A DNA stretch of 64,000 nucleotides, from positions 7,527 to 71,526 of the forward strand of contig JAEYAU010000092.1 in assembly GCA_023404705.1 (NCBI GenBank), given 5' to 3'. Source of the DNA: Pseudomonadota bacterium (GTDB lineage: Bacteria; Pseudomonadota; Alphaproteobacteria; Rhizobiales; Xanthobacteraceae). The position numbers were made by a program, and so were the translations under genes. This document shows, in pieces, positions 32,947 through 49,008 of the stretch. The notes below the pieces were generated by a model, which saw only the letters and a list, made by a program, of their open reading frames with translations, searched no databases and was not told the origin of the DNA. Position 1 is the first letter of the stretch. Every line of letters starts with the position of its first letter.

Positions 32947-34089
32947 TTGACCCCCGTCAAGGCTGCGCTTCCCGCACGAACGCATTCTGGCGCGCAAATG
33001 TCATCCGCTCGGCAGGTCACACCTCCCGCAACGGCGCGCGTGTCGGCGCGGCCCTGGGCCCGGCTCGCGCTGCTTGCCTTTGCGCCGGTGGCGCTGGTCA
33101 CGGGCCTGCTCGGCGGCCTGGTACGGCTCGGCTGGGAGCTGCCGGGCATCGGGCTCGCCGAGCTCCACGGCGGGCTGATGATCTCGGGCCTGTTCGGGAT
33201 CGTGATCGGTCTCGAGCGTGCGGTTGCGCTGGGGCATCCGGCCGCCTACGGGGCGCCGGCGCTGGCGGTGGCCGGAACCGTGGGGCTGCTCGCCGGGGCG
33301 ACCGGGCTCGGCACATTATTATATGTGGGCGCCGCGGCCGTGCTGGCCGCCGTCTCGGGCGACATTCTGCGGCGGCAGCCGGCCGTGTTCACGGCAACGA
33401 TGCTCGCGGGCGCGGCCGCCTGGCTTGTCGGCAATCTGCTGTGGTTCGCCGGCTTCCCGATCTTCGACCTGGTCGGCTGGTGGCTCGCCTTTCTGGTGCT
33501 CACCATCGCGGGCGAGCGCCTGGAGCTGAGCCGCTTGCTGGCGCCGAAGCGCGGCAGCCTGCCCCTGTTCGGCGTGGCGGTCGGCCTCATCCTCGCCGGG
33601 GCGGGCTTCGGCCTGGTCGAGCAACCGGCTGTGTTCGGCGCAGGGCTGCTGGTCGCGGCCCTCTGGCTCGCGCGCCACGACATCGCCCGCCGCAGCATCC
33701 GCGCCCATGGCGCGCCGCGTTTCTTCGCGAGCTGCATGCTGAGCGGCTATGCCTGGCTCGCGATCGCGGGCGCGCTGCTCCTGGTCGCGCCGCCCAAGAC
33801 GGCGAGCTTCGGCTACGATCTCGTGTTGCACAGCGTGCTGATCGGCTTCGTGCTCTCGATGGTGTTCGGGCACGCGCTGATCATTCTGCCGGCGGTCGCC
33901 CGGATCAGGATGGTCTATACGTCCTGGCTGTACGGTCCCCTGGTCCTGCTGCACCTCTCACTCGTGCTGCGCGCCGCGGGCGGGCTCATGGGCGCGCCGG
34001 AGCTTCGCGCATGGAGCGGCGTGATCACGGTGATCGCGCTGGTCTCGTTCGCCGGCGTTGCCGCCTATGGCGCGTTGCGCCGATCCTAG
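32947..34089 (+). CDS. polytopic integral membrane protein, family unknown
   Basis: ORF 32947..34089 with a TTG start as given. An alternative ATG is at 32998. It has about 10 hydrophobic segments and conserved-looking His ([20 protein letters not shown]). Its stop overlaps the ctaA stop (CTAG). Confidence 0.55.
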
Positions 34090-36635: not shown

Positions 36636-36649
36636 TTGACCTAGATCAA
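36636..36649. promoter_or_regulatory. FNR-type box TTGAC-ctag-ATCAA between the two divergent Crp/Fnr genes
   Basis: It has one mismatch to the consensus and is centred 90 nt from the 36733 ATG and about 110 nt from the 36533 ATG. Confidence 0.55.
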
Positions 36650-36732
36650 CGAATGCGTTGTCACGCCGCCTATATTGCGATGACCTGGGGGAAAGCGTGA
36701 ACCGCCCCCGAAGCGCGATCGAGAGAGCATTC

Positions 36733-37512
36733 ATGACCCGACGCGTCGAGCATTCTTCGAGTGTCCCGACACCCGTGGACCTGGCCGTCGTCTCCCGGAT
36801 CGCGGTGTTCCGTGGTTTGAAGCCGGATACGATCCAGCGGATCGTGGCCCCCGCGACGGTCGCGACACTGCGCGAACGTGAGGTGCTGTTCCGGCAGGGC
36901 GATCCCGCGGCGGCCTTCTTCATCGTCGTGGAAGGCTGGGTGAAGCTCTATCGGATCACGCTTTCGGGCGAGGAGACCGTGATTCACGTCCTCACCAAGG
37001 GCGACAGCTTCGCCGAGGCGGTCGCGTTCACGGGAGCCTCCTATCCGGCCACCGCCGAAGCGGTGAGCGACGCTCGCGTCGTGCGTATCCCGGCCGACCA
37101 CGTGGTGCGCTGCATCCGCGAGATGCCGGACATCGCGCTCGCCATGATCGCCTCCACCTCGCAGCATCTGCACCACCTGGTGCAACAGGTCGAGCAGCTC
37201 AAGGCGCAGAGCGGCGTGCAGCGCGTGGCGGAGTTCCTCGCCGGGCTCTGTCCCGCCGAGCAGGGCTCCGGCACGATCGCGCTGCCTTACGACAAGGTGC
37301 TGATCGCCGCGCGCCTCGGTCTCAAACCCGAATCGCTGTCGCGCGCCTTCGCCAAGCTGAGATCGTTCGGGGTCGACGTGCGGGCCTCGCATGTCGCGGT
37401 GCGCGACATCGCCAAGCTGCGGCAACTCGCGGCGGACGATCGCGGCGCGATCCGCGGCACGCTGCGGCTTCCCCAGCGCTCCGCCGAGCCGCTTGCGGCG
37501 CGTGGATCCTGA
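36733..37512 (+). CDS. Crp/Fnr family transcriptional regulator, FixK-like (no Cys cluster)
   Basis: The ATG at 36733 follows GAGAGAG. Motifs are VLFRQGDPAAAFFIVVEGWVKLYR and an HTH with LKPESLSRAFAKL (E--SR). Confidence 0.8.
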   Translation: MTRRVEHSSSVPTPVDLAVVSRIAVFRGLKPDTIQRIVAPATVATLREREVLFRQGDPAAAFFIVVEGWVKLYRITLSGEETVIHVLTKGDSFAEAVAFTGASYPATAEAVSDARVVRIPADHVVRCIREMPDIALAMIASTSQHLHHLVQQVEQLKAQSGVQRVAEFLAGLCPAEQGSGTIALPYDKVLIAARLGLKPESLSRAFAKLRSFGVDVRASHVAVRDIAKLRQLAADDRGAIRGTLRLPQRSAEPLAARGS

Positions 37513-42281: not shown

Positions 42282-44003
42282 TCAGCGGAACAGCCAGAGT
42301 TCCGAGAGATATTTCCAGTTGATGAAGTAGTAGAGGACGAACGACACGAAGAAGATGGTGACGAGCACGATCGTGCCCGGCAGCTTCACCGTGGCGTGGC
42401 TCCCGTAGTGCGAGGCGGCGGCGCCGCCGCCCTGATGGAGCGGGAAGGTGAGCTTGTGCCCGGCCGTGATCTTCTTGCCGAACAGCACGGTGCCGACCAC
42501 CACCACCACGTAGATGACGCCGCCCGCCGCCGCGAGGATCGCGAACACGCCGTTCAGTCCCATCATCAGGAAGGCGCCGGCCGAGTGCGCGAAGGAGATC
42601 GTCGCGTCACTGAAGGTGATGTCCCAGTGACGGCGTGGCACGCCGAGGGTGCCCGCGCCCATCATGAACATCGAGATGCCGGCGGCGCCGATGCCGAACA
42701 CATAGGGCTGCAGCTTGGCGAGCTTCGGCCACACGATCTCGCGCTGGAAGATCAAGGGGAGCACCAGGTAGGTGCCGCCCATGAAGGCGAGCGTGGTGCC
42801 GGCGACGACCGTGCCGTGGAAGTGGCCCGGCACGTAGATCGTGTTGTGCATCAGCACGTTGAGCTGCTCGGTGCCGAGCACCACGCCGGAGATGCCGCCG
42901 ATGAAGCCGAACATCACGAGCGAGAGGAACATGGCCGCGAAGGCCGGGTTGCCCCACGGTGCCTTGCGCAGCCACTCGAACACGCCCTTGGTGTAGCCGT
43001 TCTTGCGCTGGGCGGCTTCGATCGCGCCCGGCACGGTGAGGCCGTGGATCATCGATCCGAGCACCGCGAGATACATCATGTAGCTGGTATTGACGATCTT
43101 CCAGCTCGCCGTCATGCCGGGCTCGGCGAGCAGGTGATGCGCCGAGGCGAGCTGCAGGAACAGGATGTAGAGGAAGAACGCGGTGCGGCTCACCTTCTCG
43201 GAGAGCGGCTTGGCGCCGAGCAGCAGGGCCACCGTGAGATACCAGATCGAGACATGCGCCGAGACGTTGATCTGTTGCGACGAGTGACCCATCGCCCACC
43301 AGACGACCTTGTACATCAGCGGGTCGATGTCGCCGATCCATCCGAGCGACCAGAGCCAGGTCGGGATCAGGATGATGGCGCCGGACGCGATGGTGAAGAC
43401 TGCGATGATCGCGGCCGTCAGCGCGCCGAAGGTCACGAGCGGCATGGAGCCCTGATAGGTCTGCTCCTCCTTGGCGACCGCGAGGGTCGCGAAGAAGATG
43501 CCGACACCGATCAGCGCGCCGACGGCGAACAGGATCAGCCCCAGATAGAAGTTGGATTTCGCCATCATCGGCGGATAGGACGTGAACATCACGCTCGATT
43601 CGCCGCGCAGCACCTCGACATTGGTGAGCACGGCACCCACCACCATCAGCACGAAGCCGAGCCAGGCGATCTTCGGTGCGGGCAGGCGGCAGTTGAGCAG
43701 GACCGCGGAGGCGAAGTAGAGCACCGCGATCTCGAAGAAGATGATCCAGAACAGCAGCACATTGGCGCCGTGTCCGGTGAGCACGAGGTAGAACCACTCG
43801 GCCGGCAGCAGGTGAACGGCCGGCCAGCGTGTGAGCGCGACCAGCAGGCCCATGAGGCCGCCGAGCGCCAGGAAGATCACGGCCGCGACCGCATTGGCCT
43901 TGATCAGCGCTTGCGCCGCGGCGTCGACTTTGAGTCCCGTGTAGGGACAGGTGCGGAAATCCGCGGCTCTGCCGCCGACACCGACGATGGTTTCAGCAGT
44001 CAT
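42282..44003 (-). CDS. heme-copper oxidase superfamily subunit I, B-family-like, lacking the cross-link Tyr (candidate NO reductase-type enzyme)
   Basis: LTGHGANVLLF (low-spin heme His), WWAMGHSSQQ (CuB His, with Gln where A/B-family oxidases have Tyr at His+4), LASAHHLL (CuB His pair) and PGHFHGTVV (heme His pair). Confidence 0.82.
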   Translation of the reverse strand: MTAETIVGVGGRAADFRTCPYTGLKVDAAAQALIKANAVAAVIFLALGGLMGLLVALTRWPAVHLLPAEWFYLVLTGHGANVLLFWIIFFEIAVLYFASAVLLNCRLPAPKIAWLGFVLMVVGAVLTNVEVLRGESSVMFTSYPPMMAKSNFYLGLILFAVGALIGVGIFFATLAVAKEEQTYQGSMPLVTFGALTAAIIAVFTIASGAIILIPTWLWSLGWIGDIDPLMYKVVWWAMGHSSQQINVSAHVSIWYLTVALLLGAKPLSEKVSRTAFFLYILFLQLASAHHLLAEPGMTASWKIVNTSYMMYLAVLGSMIHGLTVPGAIEAAQRKNGYTKGVFEWLRKAPWGNPAFAAMFLSLVMFGFIGGISGVVLGTEQLNVLMHNTIYVPGHFHGTVVAGTTLAFMGGTYLVLPLIFQREIVWPKLAKLQPYVFGIGAAGISMFMMGAGTLGVPRRHWDITFSDATISFAHSAGAFLMMGLNGVFAILAAAGGVIYVVVVVGTVLFGKKITAGHKLTFPLHQGGGAAASHYGSHATVKLPGTIVLVTIFFVSFVLYYFINWKYLSELWLFR

Positions 44004-44006
44004 ATC

Positions 44007-44582
44007 TTATCTCCCATCGGCGAGGCGTTCGCCGGCCTCGGCCCGCTTCGGTTCCGTGACGTAGATCTTGCCGGTCATCGTGTGATGACCGATCCCGCAG
44101 AACTCGTTGCAGACGATCCCGAACTCGCCGGACTCCGTCGGCGTCAGGGTGATCACGTGCTCGTAGCCGGGATGGACCTGGATGTTGATGTTGGTCGGCT
44201 GCAGCGAGAAGCCGTGCTGCCAGTCGATCGAGGAGAGATGGAAGCGATAGCTCTTGCCCTTCTCGAGCTCGAGAATCGGCCACCAGTTCCACAGCCGGCC
44301 CAGCATGTAGACGTCGGTATTGGCGGGCGGCTTGACCACCGGCACGCCCTTTTCCTCGCGTACCGTGTACTTCTTGGTGAATTCCTCGACCTTCGTCTCA
44401 TAGCGCGAAGGCGCGATGCGATAGGCCTCGCGGCTCAGATTCTGGCCACCGATGAAGTGCCAGGCGATCATGAAGCCGAACATGAACAGGCCCCAGAGAA
44501 AGGCGATGACCGTCCAGGTCAGCTCGACTCTCTCGATGGGTTCGTTCCACCAGACTCGTTGTTCGGGTGGTGTGACGGCCAT
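44007..44582 (-). CDS. heme-copper oxidase subunit II with intact CuA site
   Basis: It has one N-terminal TM and a cupredoxin domain with WQHGF...CNEFCGIGHHTM (H, C, C, H and M ligands). Its stop lies 3 nt before the subunit I ATG. Confidence 0.82.
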   Translation of the reverse strand: MAVTPPEQRVWWNEPIERVELTWTVIAFLWGLFMFGFMIAWHFIGGQNLSREAYRIAPSRYETKVEEFTKKYTVREEKGVPVVKPPANTDVYMLGRLWNWWPILELEKGKSYRFHLSSIDWQHGFSLQPTNINIQVHPGYEHVITLTPTESGEFGIVCNEFCGIGHHTMTGKIYVTEPKRAEAGERLADGR

Positions 44583-44619
44583 TGCGGTCCCCCGTCGTGC
44601 GATGAAAGGAAGGGTGTGA

Positions 44620-44784
44620 TCAGTTCGCGAGCGGGATGGATGCGACTTCCATCACGCCCCAGAGGATGTAGAGGACCGTCGGAATGGTGACGCCGACGAA
44701 GAGCAGCAGGAACGGATTGTCGAGAATCTGCTGCATCATGGGGATGCGCGCTTGCGTCTGGTCCGTCGGATTTGGCGTCGTCAT
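44620..44784 (-). CDS. small single-TM protein (possible accessory oxidase subunit)
   Basis: ATG at 44784 (MTTPNPTDQTQARIPMMQQILDNPFLLLFVGVTIPTVLYILWGV...). It is the first gene of the operon. The RBS is AGAGGGG. Confidence 0.45.
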   Translation of the reverse strand: MTTPNPTDQTQARIPMMQQILDNPFLLLFVGVTIPTVLYILWGVMEVASIPLAN

Positions 44785-44844
44785 GGGCAGCCCCTCTGGT
44801 GGCGAATGACTGCCGAAAAATATGTCCGTGTCGCACGGGTAGGT

Positions 44845-44858
44845 TTGACTATGGTCAA
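44845..44858. promoter_or_regulatory. palindromic FNR/Dnr/NnrR-type box TTGAC-tatg-GTCAA
   Basis: A perfect dyad centred 67 nt upstream of the 44784 ATG, the first gene of the oxidase operon. It lies in the divergent region shared with the 44893 gene. Confidence 0.5.
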
Positions 44859-44892
44859 GGTTTGTGCGGTGCACGCATAAATAATCAACAGC

Positions 44893-45354
44893 ATGCGTAT
44901 TTCACCCGAACCGTTTTGGATGAAACCATTCGGGGCGATGTCGCCGCGCTTGCGCTGGAGCGCTGCCGGTCTCTCGGCGGTAGTCGCGCTCGCGCTCGCG
45001 AGCGTTGCGCTGTGGCCGATTCCGGCGAAACCGAAGGAGCTTCTGCTGCTCTATGTCGGCGCCGAGGACTGCGCGCCGTGCCGAGCCTGGCAAAAAGGCG
45101 AGGGCGCGCAATTCCGCGCCACGTCCGAGTTCGCGCGCGTGCCCTATCGCGAGGTGAAGTCGGCGACCTTGCGCGATCTGCTCAAGGACGAGAACTGGCC
45201 GGAGGATCTGCGGATCTACCGCGATCAGCTCGGTGCCGGCGCGGGCGTGCCGATGTGGCTCGTCATTGCCGACAATCGAATCATCGAACGCAGCTTCGGC
45301 GAAAGCCAATGGCGAACGAACACATTGCCGAAGGTCAGGGCGCTGCTGCGCTGA
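44893..45354 (+). CDS. membrane-anchored thioredoxin-fold protein with CxxC (CAPC)
   Basis: Signal anchor LSAVVALALASVALW followed by LLLLYVGAEDCAPCRAW. The start is uncertain: 44893, 44920 or 44938. Confidence 0.5.
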   Translation: MRISPEPFWMKPFGAMSPRLRWSAAGLSAVVALALASVALWPIPAKPKELLLLYVGAEDCAPCRAWQKGEGAQFRATSEFARVPYREVKSATLRDLLKDENWPEDLRIYRDQLGAGAGVPMWLVIADNRIIERSFGESQWRTNTLPKVRALLR

Positions 45355-45400
45355 ACGCGTCCTAGTTCTGAAGGCGCGACCTCCAGGACCCGAGGAAACC

Positions 45401-45414
45401 TTAACCTAGATCAA
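45401..45414. promoter_or_regulatory. FNR-type box TTAAC-ctag-ATCAA in a gene-free region
   Basis: It shares ACCTAGATCAA with the box at 36636 and lies 35-50 nt upstream of a structured region that ends in a strong terminator. Confidence 0.45.
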
Positions 45415-45448
45415 TGCGGCTCGTCGTGTTCAGGCGCATGAGTGGCAT

Positions 45449-45533
45449 CTCCGGACGAGCTCTCATCCTCCCCGAGACAATGTCTGGCCCTGAACCCCGC
45501 AAGCCAGCGCGCTTGGCGGGGTTCATTTTTTTT
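45449..45533 (+). ncRNA. candidate FNR-box-dependent small RNA with anti-Shine-Dalgarno loop
   Basis: The start is predicted from the -41.5 rule. A hairpin CCGGAC...GUCUGG encloses UCUC-[AUCCUCCCC]-GAGA. A 13-bp GC-rich terminator stem plus U8 follows. The overlapping 82-aa ORF looks non-coding. Confidence 0.35.
45492..45533 (+). terminator. Rho-independent terminator
   Basis: GAACCCCGCAAGC-cagcgc-GCTTGGCGGGGTTC forms a 13-bp stem with one bulge. It is followed by A and eight T on the + strand only. Confidence 0.75.
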
Positions 45534-45565
45534 GCGGCTCGGGGTCATCCTCGAACCGCACCTGA

Positions 45566-48127
45566 TCACAACTGCAGGCGGCGCCGCCAGAGCGGCTTGA
45601 TCAGCTCGAGGATCAGCAAGAGTGCGAGCCCGGCACCGAGGGTGAGCGCGAGATCATCGTGATGCAACGGGCCGAACCGGAACAGAGTGCTCGCCGCGGG
45701 CCAGACCAGCGTCAGGCCGAGGGTCGTGGCGACCACCAGCAGGATCAACGCGAGGATGGGATTCGGACGTCTGAATGCCGCCAGCAGTGACGTGCTGAAG
45801 GAGCGGTTGATCAGAATAAGACTGACGATGCAGACCACGAGAGAGAAGAAGGTGATCGCGCGCGCCTCGTCCGGCGGCATGCCGCGCGCGAGCGCCACGA
45901 CATAGATCGCCGCGCACAGGGCAAAGGCCAGCGCGCCTTGCAGGACACTCCAGGCGATCAGCGGCCAGGAAAAGAGCGGCTCGTCAGGCGGGCGAGGCGG
46001 ACGGTTCATGACGTCCGCTTCTTCGGTCTCGGCTTCGAAAACCAGCGTGCACACCGGGTCGATCACCATCTCGAGAAACGCGATATGAATCGGACCGAAG
46101 ATGATAGGCAGTCCGAACACGAGCGGCAGAAGGGCGAGGCCGGCGATCGGCACATGCACCGCGAAGATGAATGCCATGGCCTTGCGCAGATTGTCGTAGA
46201 TGCGACGGCCGAGGCGCACCGCGGTCACAATCGATCCAAAATCGTCGTCGAGCAGAACGATGGCGGAGGCCTCGCGCGCCACGTCGGTCCCGCGGCCACC
46301 CATGGCCACGCCGATGTGGGCGGCCTTGAGGGATGGCGCGTCGTTCACGCCGTCGCCCGTCATGGCGACGATATCGCCTCGGCCCTTCAGGGCCTGAACG
46401 ATGCGCAGCTTCTGCTCCGGCATGATGCGCGCGAACACGCTGGTGCGTCCGGCACGGCGCGCAAGCTCGCCGTCGGATAGAGCCTCCACATCCTCCCCGG
46501 TCACGACCTCGGCGGCATCGATCCCGGCCTCGGCCGCAATGGCGCGCGCGGTGGCCGGATAGTCCCCGGTGATCATCACGACGCGGATGCCGGCGGAACG
46601 GCATTCGCGAACGGCCGCGGGCACACTTGGCCGCAACGGATCGGCAAGCCCGACAAGACCGAGAAAGTCGAAACGAAAGCCAAGGGGCGACGCGGGAAGG
46701 CTCTCGCCCACATGGGTCGCCTTCGCCACGGCCAGCACACGTAACCCTTCGCGGGCCATGGCATCGACGGCGTGATGCATCGCGTCTGTGGCGGCACTGT
46801 CGAGACCGCAAAGTCGCGCAATGCTCTCCGGCGCCCCCTTGCTTGCAATCGCCAAGCCGGACTCGTTGTCGTCTCCCTTCCAGGCATGCGTCACGGCGAG
46901 GAGTTCGGGCCGAAGACCGTACCCGTGCACGAGCTTCCATTGAGAATCCAGTGCTCGCGCGGACCCAAGCCCGTCGCGCGCGAAGGCATGAAAGGCCTTC
47001 TCCATCGGATCGAACGGCTCGGGGGCGCTTGCCAGCAAGCCATAAGTGGCCAGCTCGTGGAACGGGCCGGGAATGCCCGCCGCCATGCCGTCGCGGGACC
47101 GGAAGACATTGCCGTCCGGCAGCCGGAGCTCCACGATCGACATCCGGTTTTCGGTGAGGGTGCCGGTCTTGTCCGTGCAGAGCACGGTGGCAGAGCCGAG
47201 CGTCTCGATCGACGCGGCGCGTCGCGTCAGCACGCGTGCGCGCGATATTCGCCAGGCGCCCATCGCCATGAACACGGTCAGCACGACCGGAAATTCCTCC
47301 GGCAGCATCGACATGCCAATGGCGATGCCCGCAAGGAGCGCTTCCAGCCAGCCGCCGCGCAACGTGCAGTAGAGGACGATTGCGACCAGGCTCACGGCCG
47401 CGCCTCCAAGGGCGGCAAGCCGCACCAGGCGCCTGGTCTGGAGCTGCAGCCGCGGCGGCTCCGCTTCAAGCCCGTGAAGCGATTGCCCGATCTTGCCGAT
47501 CTCACTGCGCGCGCCTGTCGACAGGACCTCGGCGAGGCCGCTTCCCCGCACGACCAATGATCCCGAATAGACGAACGGCAAGTCATCGCCGCCAGGCCGC
47601 GCCGGGCCGGCCGGCAGGGTCGTGGCCGCAACCTTGCGGACAGGCACCGATTCTCCGGTGAGCAGGGATTCATCCACTTGGACGTCGTGGCTCTCGCGCA
47701 GCGCGGCATCGGCAGGAACCCGGTCGCCCTCGGAAAGGACCACGAGGTCGCCGCGCACCACCTCGCGGCCGGGGATGCGCTTGCGCTCCCCATCGCGAAC
47801 CACCAGGGCACGCGGGCTTGTGAGATCTCGGAGCGCCTCGAGCACCCGTTCGGTGCGCGTCTCTTGCACGACCGTGATCGCGACCGACAGCATCGCGAAG
47901 GTGAGGAGGATCAGCGATTCCTTGAGGTCGCCGAGCAGGAGATAGATGAGCCCTGCGCCGAGCAGGAGGAGGAGCATCGGCTCGCGCAAGACCTCCAGGA
48001 CGATCCGCAGCGCCGTGCGCCGGTCGGCTCGCGGCAACTCATTGAAGCCCTCGGATTTGAGGCGCAGCTCGGCCTCGGCCACGCTGAGGCCGAGCCTGTT
48101 CGGGGGCGCGTCCTCGTCATTGCTCAT
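45566..48127 (-). CDS. cation-transporting P-type ATPase (P2-type, Ca2+/Mg2+-like)
   Basis: An 853-aa protein with TGESVPV, CTDKTGTLTEN, MITGD and TGDGVNDAPSLK. The ATG overlaps the FNT gene stop (ATGA). Confidence 0.88.
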   Translation of the reverse strand: MSNDEDAPPNRLGLSVAEAELRLKSEGFNELPRADRRTALRIVLEVLREPMLLLLLGAGLIYLLLGDLKESLILLTFAMLSVAITVVQETRTERVLEALRDLTSPRALVVRDGERKRIPGREVVRGDLVVLSEGDRVPADAALRESHDVQVDESLLTGESVPVRKVAATTLPAGPARPGGDDLPFVYSGSLVVRGSGLAEVLSTGARSEIGKIGQSLHGLEAEPPRLQLQTRRLVRLAALGGAAVSLVAIVLYCTLRGGWLEALLAGIAIGMSMLPEEFPVVLTVFMAMGAWRISRARVLTRRAASIETLGSATVLCTDKTGTLTENRMSIVELRLPDGNVFRSRDGMAAGIPGPFHELATYGLLASAPEPFDPMEKAFHAFARDGLGSARALDSQWKLVHGYGLRPELLAVTHAWKGDDNESGLAIASKGAPESIARLCGLDSAATDAMHHAVDAMAREGLRVLAVAKATHVGESLPASPLGFRFDFLGLVGLADPLRPSVPAAVRECRSAGIRVVMITGDYPATARAIAAEAGIDAAEVVTGEDVEALSDGELARRAGRTSVFARIMPEQKLRIVQALKGRGDIVAMTGDGVNDAPSLKAAHIGVAMGGRGTDVAREASAIVLLDDDFGSIVTAVRLGRRIYDNLRKAMAFIFAVHVPIAGLALLPLVFGLPIIFGPIHIAFLEMVIDPVCTLVFEAETEEADVMNRPPRPPDEPLFSWPLIAWSVLQGALAFALCAAIYVVALARGMPPDEARAITFFSLVVCIVSLILINRSFSTSLLAAFRRPNPILALILLVVATTLGLTLVWPAASTLFRFGPLHHDDLALTLGAGLALLLILELIKPLWRRRLQL

Positions 48128-49008
48128 GCGTCGGAAGGCGTCCGGCTCGGGCTGGGTCGGAGGTAGACAAACCAGTAGACGACGCCGACAAGGACACCGC
48201 CACCCACAACATTACCGATCGTCACCGGGATCAAGCTCCAGAAGAATGCGGGCCAGCTCAGATCAGCCACATGGGCAGTCGAGACCGAGCCCAGGGCGCT
48301 CGGTCCCCAATCCCTGATCATCATGCCGAGCGGTATGAGGTACATGTTCGCCACCGAGTGCTCAAATCCGGCGGCGACAAACGCTGCGACCGGAAACAGA
48401 ACCGCGAGCACCTTGTCGGCGGTCGTGCGCGCGCCGATGGACAGCCAGACCGCGAGGCAGACTAGAACATTGCAGAGGATGCCCAGGAAGAATGCCCGGC
48501 CGAATGGAAGGGCGGCTTTGGAGGACGCGATCGATACGGCGATCTCGGCGACGACACCATCACCCGACAAGTGCTGACCCGAAAGGAAGACGAGGACCGC
48601 GGTTCCGAACGCGCCGACAAAGTTGCCGACATAGACGATGAGCCATGCCCGCAGCATTTCCAGGCCGGTGATCTTGCGCGCAGCCAAGGCCATGACCATC
48701 AGTGTGTTGCCGGTGAACAATTCGGCTCCGCCGACAACCACCAGGATCAGCCCCAGCGAGAACACGAGCCCGGCGAAGAGTCGCGTGATGCCGAACGGAA
48801 GCACCCCATCGGCGCCGGCCATGACGGTGGTGGCGAACATCGCTCCAAGGCCGATGAACGCCCCCGCCAACATCGACAGAACGACAAGTCTCGAGAGGTC
48901 CAGGCGCGCCTTTTGGGCGCCGATCGTCTCTGCCTTCTGCGCGATCTCGGCCGGAAGAAGCGCATCGATCACGAAGCGTGGTTCTGGAGGGCGCATATTC
49001 TCATCCAT
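48124..49008 (-). CDS. formate/nitrite transporter (FNT) family channel
   Basis: GAELFTGN, FFLGILCNVLVCLAVW and AAGFEHSVANMY are FNT signatures. The substrate cannot be told from the sequence alone. Confidence 0.85.
   Translation of the reverse strand: MDENMRPPEPRFVIDALLPAEIAQKAETIGAQKARLDLSRLVVLSMLAGAFIGLGAMFATTVMAGADGVLPFGITRLFAGLVFSLGLILVVVGGAELFTGNTLMVMALAARKITGLEMLRAWLIVYVGNFVGAFGTAVLVFLSGQHLSGDGVVAEIAVSIASSKAALPFGRAFFLGILCNVLVCLAVWLSIGARTTADKVLAVLFPVAAFVAAGFEHSVANMYLIPLGMMIRDWGPSALGSVSTAHVADLSWPAFFWSLIPVTIGNVVGGGVLVGVVYWFVYLRPSPSRTPSDA

Follow-up and report, generated by a model that had tools for sequence, protein, structure and literature searches.

A Crp/Fnr-type box, a CCUCCCC hairpin and a strong intrinsic terminator downstream of a CxxC-protein gene in an alphaproteobacterium

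Genes and features of the locus

We analysed a 64-kb stretch of DNA, here called the window (G+C content 67.6%), with a focus on a 211-bp spacer (45355-45565) between two convergent genes, one for a small CxxC protein on the plus strand and one for a P-type ATPase on the minus strand. A first-pass annotation of this DNA had placed a candidate FNR-activated small RNA (sRNA) with an anti-Shine-Dalgarno loop and a strong terminator in a gap of about 210 bp between convergent genes. The measured length agrees with this, and every sequence feature that had been described was found in place, the statistical weight differing from one feature to the next. Coordinates are collected in Table 1.

The CxxC protein carries an N-terminal hydrophobic transmembrane segment and a CAPC motif. 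Its 354 homologs, 134-144 aa in length, are all annotated as hypothetical, and no Pfam, NCBIfam or PDB match was found for the protein. The gene probably starts near 44938/44950 because the ATG at 44893 coincides with the transcription start that the upstream Crp/Fnr box predicts. This box is perfect and has -10-like elements at a distance of about 18-22 nt on both strands (CATAAATAAT on the plus strand, CATATT on the minus strand), so that it may drive the CxxC gene as well as the divergent oxidase operon. On the minus-strand side of 44826-44858, the terminator scan also flagged a small hairpin followed by T5.

The divergent operon encodes a B-family-like heme-copper oxidase subunit I of 573 aa (42282-44582, minus strand) paired with a 191-aa CuA-like subunit II. 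The best solved relative of subunit I is the Thermus ba3 oxidase (1e-42), and its CtaD score is 62 bits against a cutoff of 670. Where oxidases normally have GHP(E/A)VY, subunit I reads WWAMGHSSQQ, and the cross-linked tyrosine thus appears to be missing. The enzyme could be a NOR-like offshoot of the oxidase superfamily, and the CxxC protein may serve the adjacent oxidase as a thiol-disulfide or metal-handling helper. NnrS genes adjoin the CxxC-gene homolog in one related locus (L001), and a formate/nitrite transporter gene lies near the oxidase in the window. The latter overlaps the start of the ATPase gene by 4 nt (ATGA, 48124-48127), for which reason the two genes are probably co-transcribed; this pairing was absent in all three of the closest ATPase homologs examined.

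Table 1. Positions of the features of the spacer, its neighbours and the Crp/Fnr-type boxes in the window.
Feature	Position	Strand	Remarks
Crp/Fnr-family regulator gene	36658..37512		E-SLSR recognition helix, no N-terminal Cys cluster; FixK/FtrB-like
Perfect Crp/Fnr (FixK-type) box TTGACTATGGTCAA	44845..44858		upstream of CxxC-protein gene
Small membrane-anchored protein gene, CAPC (CxxC) motif	44893..45354	+	GC3 0.79-0.82
Synteny breakpoint	45355..45360		relative to L006; similarity ends 4 nt past the stop codon
Near-consensus Crp/Fnr box TTAACCTAGATCAA	45401-45414		one mismatch; 9/10 specified positions match TTGAY-N4-RTCAA
Weak -10-like hexamer CATGAG	45437..45442	+	22-nt spacer from the 45401 box
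Hairpin	45451..45487	+	9-nt loop AUCCUCCCC at 45465-45473
Intrinsic terminator	45491..45533	+	stem-loop 45491-45525, T8 at 45526-45533
P-type cation ATPase gene, type II, Ca2+/Mg2+-like	45566..48127	-	convergent to CxxC gene
Formate/nitrite transporter gene	48124..49008		its end overlaps the ATPase gene start by 4 nt
Crp/Fnr boxes with at most one mismatch	3040, 15432, 16779, 17127, 27294, 27359, 32947, 36588, 36636, 44845, 45401, 51354

Open reading frames are present in the spacer, namely an 82-aa frame on the plus strand (45414..45662) and frames of 41 and 52 aa on the minus strand, the GGAGG of which is the complement of the hairpin loop. On this strand, GGGGAGGAUG puts a Shine-Dalgarno-like sequence directly at an AUG. 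That one of these frames is a small protein gene is nevertheless exceedingly improbable. The GGAGG touches its AUG with zero spacer, and the 82-aa frame, just as the first-pass annotation had it, lacks a ribosome-binding site, crosses the terminator and continues antisense to the ATPase gene. It has the same third-codon phase as that gene, of whose frame it is a shadow. A search of 1.84 billion representative proteins returned no relatives of the 82-aa frame and a Pfam search no match, and the small-protein reading was rejected on these grounds.

Crp/Fnr-type boxes and the local regulator

Boxes of the form TTGAY-N4-RTCAA with at most one mismatch occur 12 times in the 64-kb window compared with 1.65 expected, an enrichment of about sevenfold; none of 100 shuffles reached 12. 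Perfect TTGA-N6-TCAA sites are found five times (0.17 expected), while the boxes with one mismatch, most of them upstream of genes, number seven (about 1.6 expected). The window is thus a dense Crp/Fnr-type regulon island. Many of its boxes lie upstream of genes for AMP-binding proteins (CoA ligases), acyl-CoA dehydrogenases, enoyl-CoA hydratases and respiratory proteins, a distribution that suggests low-oxygen control of CoA-dependent catabolism. AT-rich, -10-like hexamers (TATATT, CATATT, CTAATT, CTTAAT and CATAAATAAT) follow other boxes of the window at 17-23 nt.

A Crp/Fnr-family regulator is encoded in the window itself, and further paralogs may be encoded outside it. Because the local regulator has no N-terminal cysteine cluster, the term FixK/FtrB-type fits it better than FNR. 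The box of the proposed FNR-activated sRNA is itself very probably a Crp/Fnr-family motif. Two boxes 48 bp apart, TTGACCGCGGTCAA (36588) and TTGACCTAGATCAA (36636), precede the regulator gene and suggest autoregulation or cascade control. The start of the longest open reading frame of this gene is probably too far upstream.

The box at 45401 and its candidate promoter

The single mismatch of the box at 45401 is a G to A exchange in the left TTGA, and the G of TTGA is the best-conserved position in FNR/FixK sites. Judged from its sequence, the box is probably still a real Crp/Fnr-type site, since the motif is about sevenfold enriched and a Crp/Fnr regulator is encoded in the window; the excess of one-mismatch sites likewise makes a real site likelier than a chance occurrence. 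The box differs by a single base (13 of 14 identical) from the one at 36636 before the regulator gene. A duplication of the 36636 promoter was rejected as its origin, the flanks having no shared sequence at all.

A probably real box in intergenic DNA, with no protein gene to serve and nearly the sequence of the regulator-gene box, speaks for an independent sRNA gene activated by a Crp/Fnr (FixK-type) regulator, which we regard as possible but doubtful. Bound to 45401-45414 as a class II activator (centre at -41.5), the regulator would switch on transcription from about 45447-45449 to the U8 tract, and the resulting RNA of 85-87 nt would pair through its loop AUCCUCCCC with GGGGAGGAU-like Shine-Dalgarno regions and repress translation at low oxygen. 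The geometry that the first-pass annotation had proposed, from a box centre at -41.5 via a start at 45449 to hairpin and terminator, does yield a coherent model of an 85-nt RNA.

The promoter that such a gene would need is less clear. The CAT of the candidate -10 element CATGAG has a 22-nt spacer as found for CATTCT at 32947 and close to the 21 nt of TATATT at 36636, in favour of an sRNA start. The hexamer is correctly placed and has the A at position 2; however, it lacks the T at position 6 and agrees with local -10 elements at only 4 of 6 positions, a score that about 20% of random positions equal. Against an independent sRNA, too, the mismatch of the box hits precisely the G of TTGA. A sigma-70 promoter scan of 44600-46000 returned no promoter, and on the minus strand there is no -10 element after the 45401 box. 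An RpoN-type promoter was rejected on inspection, as TGGCAT at 45442-45447 lacks a GC at the -12 spacing. With a weak hexamer, a mismatched box and no sigma-70 match, a promoter at 45401 is possible yet not convincing.

Terminator

The terminator stem comprises 14 pairs (9 G-C, 5 A-U), is interrupted by a 1-nt bulge and closes on a loop of 6 nt. At -23.8 kcal/mol (z -5.34), none of 200 shuffles folded as well, and the stable GC-rich stem-loop with U8 right after the stem is that of a Rho-independent terminator. Its T8 is the sole A/T run of seven or more in 64 kb, and a fold-based scan of the window found no second combination of hairpin and T-run with comparable strength. A simple pattern scan missed the terminator because it permits no bulge. 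On the minus strand, the stem is followed by CAGGGCC and no U tract, so that the terminator works on the plus strand only. The strong, plus-strand-only terminator with U8 of the first-pass annotation was in this way borne out, with a bulged stem of 14 bp. A bidirectional terminator that also serves the ATPase gene was rejected for the lack of a U tract on the minus strand; the stem could protect the 3' end of the ATPase mRNA. Overall, the window holds one strong intrinsic terminator and four A/T runs of six or more in 64 kb. Canonical terminators being nearly absent, most genes of the window must end transcription by other means.

The terminator starts 137 nt beyond the stop codon of the CxxC gene, and pattern and fold-based scans found no other plus-strand terminator between the promoter of this gene (44845) and 45491. 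As the CxxC gene has its own perfect and conserved box and no other terminator, the one at 45491 is explained without an sRNA gene. It follows from the same two observations that an RNA bearing the hairpin is expected under low oxygen regardless of the second box. We therefore favour, at a probability of roughly 45%, the reading that the spacer represents 3'UTR and terminator of the CxxC gene and that no separate sRNA is made. Its likeness to an ordinary Rho-independent terminator is plain: a GC-rich stem, a short loop and U8, downstream of a plus-strand gene without any other terminator. It differs from an ordinary one in its distance from the stop codon and in being the sole canonical terminator in 64 kb.

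Several points count against the 3'UTR reading. At 137 nt, the distance is somewhat large if the terminator simply serves the gene. In addition, an orphan box lies 36 nt before the hairpin and 77 nt before the sole strong terminator, a juxtaposition with a chance probability of roughly 0.02, or a few per cent at most (12 boxes per 64 kb). Box, hairpin and terminator follow one another exactly as expected of an sRNA gene, and the uniqueness of the U8 terminator in 64 kb speaks for an independent sRNA as well. Hfq-type sRNAs typically end, as the sequence does here, in a strong stem with a long U tail.

CCUCCCC hairpin

The hairpin upstream of the terminator consists of an outer stem of seven pairs, two of them G-U (45451-45457/45481-45487), and an inner UCUC/GAGA stem (45461-45464/45474-45477). 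Its structure is identical in minimum free energy (MFE) and centroid folds in three sequence contexts, and the MFE fold is exactly the one that the first-pass annotation had drawn. Its standing as a significant seed hairpin was not upheld: at -11.9 kcal/mol and a z-score of -1.41, 21 of 200 shuffles fold equally well, which is within chance. The 85-nt RNA as a whole reaches a z-score of -3.58 compared with shuffles. This value favours an independent sRNA at first sight, but it is carried by the terminator.

The loop is predicted to be unpaired with a probability of at least 0.96, also in the context of the full mRNA. A loop that is free in all contexts would suit an independent sRNA, as would the sequences complementary to the loop that the window has where ribosomes could plausibly bind, such as GGGAGGAUGUCAUG (minus strand, 55405). 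On the other hand, we estimate that a spacer of such size and composition contains about 0.4 CCUCC motifs per strand by chance. We also noted an 11-nt exact complement, CGGGGAGGAUG, to CAUCCUCCCCG (the loop plus one stem base, 45464-45474) in the ATPase coding region at 46489-46499. Such a complement is estimated to occur by chance about 0.03-0.06 times per window, and its presence in the minus-strand ATPase mRNA is probably a coincidence; should the sRNA exist, the site would be a testable target.

The hairpin could also be released from the mRNA. In this case, the 3'UTR would be cleaved upstream of the hairpin, for example by RNase E, and give rise to an sRNA that acts in trans and has no promoter of its own. 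The conserved Crp/Fnr box of the CxxC gene, the long structured 3'UTR with its strong terminator and U8, and the loop that stays unpaired in the full mRNA would all be in keeping with such processing, for which NarS (PMC8139620) and UdsC of Rhodobacter sphaeroides (PMC9779115) are precedents of 3'UTR-derived sRNAs. We consider it quite improbable, as the hairpin is not significant, no conservation was found and no cleavage site is identifiable in the sequence.

Comparison with related loci

The closest relative of the CxxC gene is found on a soil metagenome contig (L006), with 93% identity at the protein and 89.5% at the DNA level. L006 matches the 44845 box and its flanks at every position, and equivalent perfect boxes lie upstream of the CxxC homologs in L001 (3924-3937) and L025 (291-304). 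Together with the -10-like elements at the right spacing, this perfect and recurrent box argues for the 3'UTR reading.

Downstream of the gene, the picture changes abruptly. The blastn alignment with L006 extends from 44780 to 45358, and in a MAFFT alignment identity collapses after TGAA(C/T)GC, 43 nt from the 45401 box. In L006 and likewise in L007-L009, an overlapping idi-like gene directly follows the CxxC homolog. Consequently, the present 3' end of the gene in the window is a recent acquisition, which weighs against the 3'UTR reading. Other homologs are followed by a cytochrome c gene, by an enoyl-CoA hydratase gene 27 bp away, by an EamA gene or by an unidentified plus-strand gene. At least five different downstream neighbours and the sharp breakpoint mark the junction at 45355-45360 as a recombination-prone spot. 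That the downstream neighbourhood of the gene family differs in every relative seen is in line with the 3'UTR reading.

None of the CxxC-homolog loci L001-3, L004-5, L006-9 and L025 carries the spacer. A metagenome scan with the CxxC protein yielded two distant loci only. The closest ATPase homologs (77-78% identical) lie in three unrelated contexts with dissimilar downstream spacers, and a search with the C-terminal 130 aa of the ATPase gave nothing above 73%. The spacer is absent downstream of five other CxxC-gene homologs and three ATPase homologs. The window and 11 related loci contain no second copy, as judged by blastn, nhmmer and a single-sequence covariance model, and blastn against plasmids gave no match. 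The pattern CTCATCCTCCCCGAG-N31-61-T6, which combines the loop, the inner stem and T6, had 12 hits among genome species representatives, about the number estimated for chance; they fall in unrelated phyla and include no alphaproteobacterial one. The conservation test suggested by the first-pass annotation thus turned out negative, the spacer being absent from every available relative and similarity to L006 ending at 45358. Since the collections hold no syntenic relative, this is an absence at a rearrangement breakpoint and not demonstrated drift. The lack of paralogs in the window, of homologs in the 11 loci and of an alphaproteobacterial pattern match counts for the 3'UTR reading, and the lack of any homolog or paralog tells against an independent sRNA.

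The breakpoint itself offers a further explanation. The box may have been stranded when the ATPase block joined the CxxC gene at about 45358, in which case box and hairpin would have no present function and the terminator stem may mainly stabilise both convergent 3' ends. The clean breakpoint so near the box, the at least five different downstream neighbours in the CxxC gene family, the unrelated contexts of the ATPase homologs and the lack of a -10 element after the box on the minus strand fit such a relic of rearrangement. We think it improbable, given that the terminator is strong and intact and that one half-site of the palindrome is intact as well, which points to maintenance and not decay.

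Known RNA families and analogues

An Rfam scan, named as a check in the first-pass annotation, matched no family at gathering score anywhere in the window, and the sub-threshold matches were at chance level. Those to rnk_pseudo and ctRNA_pGA1 align through the terminator only and were rejected. The Rhizobiales-2 RNA motif (RF01723; Weinberg et al. 2010, PMC2864571) was aligned by cmscan, weakly but over its full length, to 45417-45523 with three hairpins, and the middle loop CAUCCUCCCC resembles the CAUCCACCCC of the family. However, eight pairs are non-canonical, the long helix is partly deleted and the alignment begins upstream of the predicted transcription start. In a search of 451 nt, the match reached 17.8 bits (E = 9.7), where the gathering score is 40. 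This is chance level and, with helix pairs broken, we take the match for a chance one. The lack of an Rfam family agrees with the 3'UTR reading and speaks against an independent sRNA.

The first-pass annotation had also likened the loop to RNAs of the CcsR/cuckoo type. The resemblance to CcsR1-4 and the 'cuckoo' RNAs with their CCUCCUCCC loops is a C/U-rich, anti-Shine-Dalgarno-like motif in a hairpin loop. It goes no further, because those RNAs have at least two hairpins and usually tandem copies, whereas the window has one hairpin in a single copy and no Rfam match. CcsR/cuckoo RNAs are encoded behind a DUF1127 gene or within its 3'UTR; the CxxC gene, being without any Pfam family, is not this gene. 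They furthermore use RpoHI/HII, and the promoter type predicted in the window differs.

FNR-dependent sRNAs are known, namely FnrS, NarS and PcrZ, and provide precedents for an independent sRNA (PMC8139620). FnrS is an enterobacterial, FNR-activated and Hfq-dependent sRNA that represses mRNAs under low oxygen (PMC8139620). The logic proposed for the candidate would be that of FnrS, with a Crp/Fnr box at class II distance, an RNA of about 85-120 nt, a strong terminator and repression at low oxygen. It differs in that there is no similarity in sequence or structure, that the lineage is another one at phylum level and that the box in the window has a mismatch. A search of 45250-45700 with FnrS (RF01796) gave no match at E <= 10 with lax filters.

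[quoted passage not shown] Here, the likeness would be an RNA from the 3' end of an mRNA with an FNR-type promoter, with a terminator shared with that mRNA and a nitrite/formate-type transporter gene nearby in both cases. In contrast to NarS, which is processed and conserved in enterobacteria, neither a processing site nor conservation was seen in the window, and the parent gene encodes an unrelated CxxC protein. PcrZ of Rhodobacter sphaeroides is low-oxygen-induced and depends on PrrA/FnrL, where control by FnrL may be indirect (PMC8139620). The candidate would share with PcrZ the alphaproteobacterial host, action in trans, low-oxygen induction and a synthesis that depends on an Fnr-family regulator, but PcrZ has no homology to the window sequence. 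Our literature search found no report of a FixK-dependent sRNA.

Conclusion

In conclusion, the spacer downstream of the CxxC gene is tentatively best read as its 3'UTR and terminator. The 44845 box would drive plus-strand transcription of the CxxC gene under low oxygen, RNA polymerase would run on for about 180 nt beyond the end of the stop codon (45354), and transcription would stop at the single strong intrinsic terminator at 45491-45533. The CCUCCCC hairpin would then belong to the 3'UTR, with no separate function that has to be assumed for it, while the other box (45401) is probably a true Crp/Fnr-type site whose firing is putative. The highly significant terminator next to an insignificant hairpin and a weak candidate -10 element is consistent with this reading. 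The independent sRNA makes a coherent but unproven model, which did not pass the tests of family membership, hairpin significance and conservation, and the ordinary 3'UTR already explains the terminator. In its most specific form, a young and lineage-specific, FixK/Fnr-activated sRNA gene carried on a module of about 133 bp from box to terminator at the breakpoint, in a soil Hyphomicrobiales-like bacterium, it is rather unlikely.

If the spacer is only a 3'UTR with its terminator, it is ordinary and marks where a conserved gene under Crp/Fnr control ends, one that encodes an uncharacterised CxxC protein and adjoins an unusual heme-copper oxidase operon. An sRNA, if real, would be an orphan addition to the Crp/Fnr-controlled sRNAs already known (FnrS, NarS, PcrZ) and not a new kind of system and, having no homologs, an example of a very young sRNA. 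It would represent an independently evolved functional analogue of FnrS in Alphaproteobacteria and the birth or acquisition of an sRNA inside a respiratory Crp/Fnr regulon. A post-transcriptional role at low oxygen is documented for FnrS and NarS of enterobacteria and only indirectly for PcrZ of Rhodobacter (PMC8139620). If the sRNA is made, it would form a post-transcriptional arm of the Crp/Fnr low-oxygen regulon in a poorly sampled lineage of soil alphaproteobacteria.
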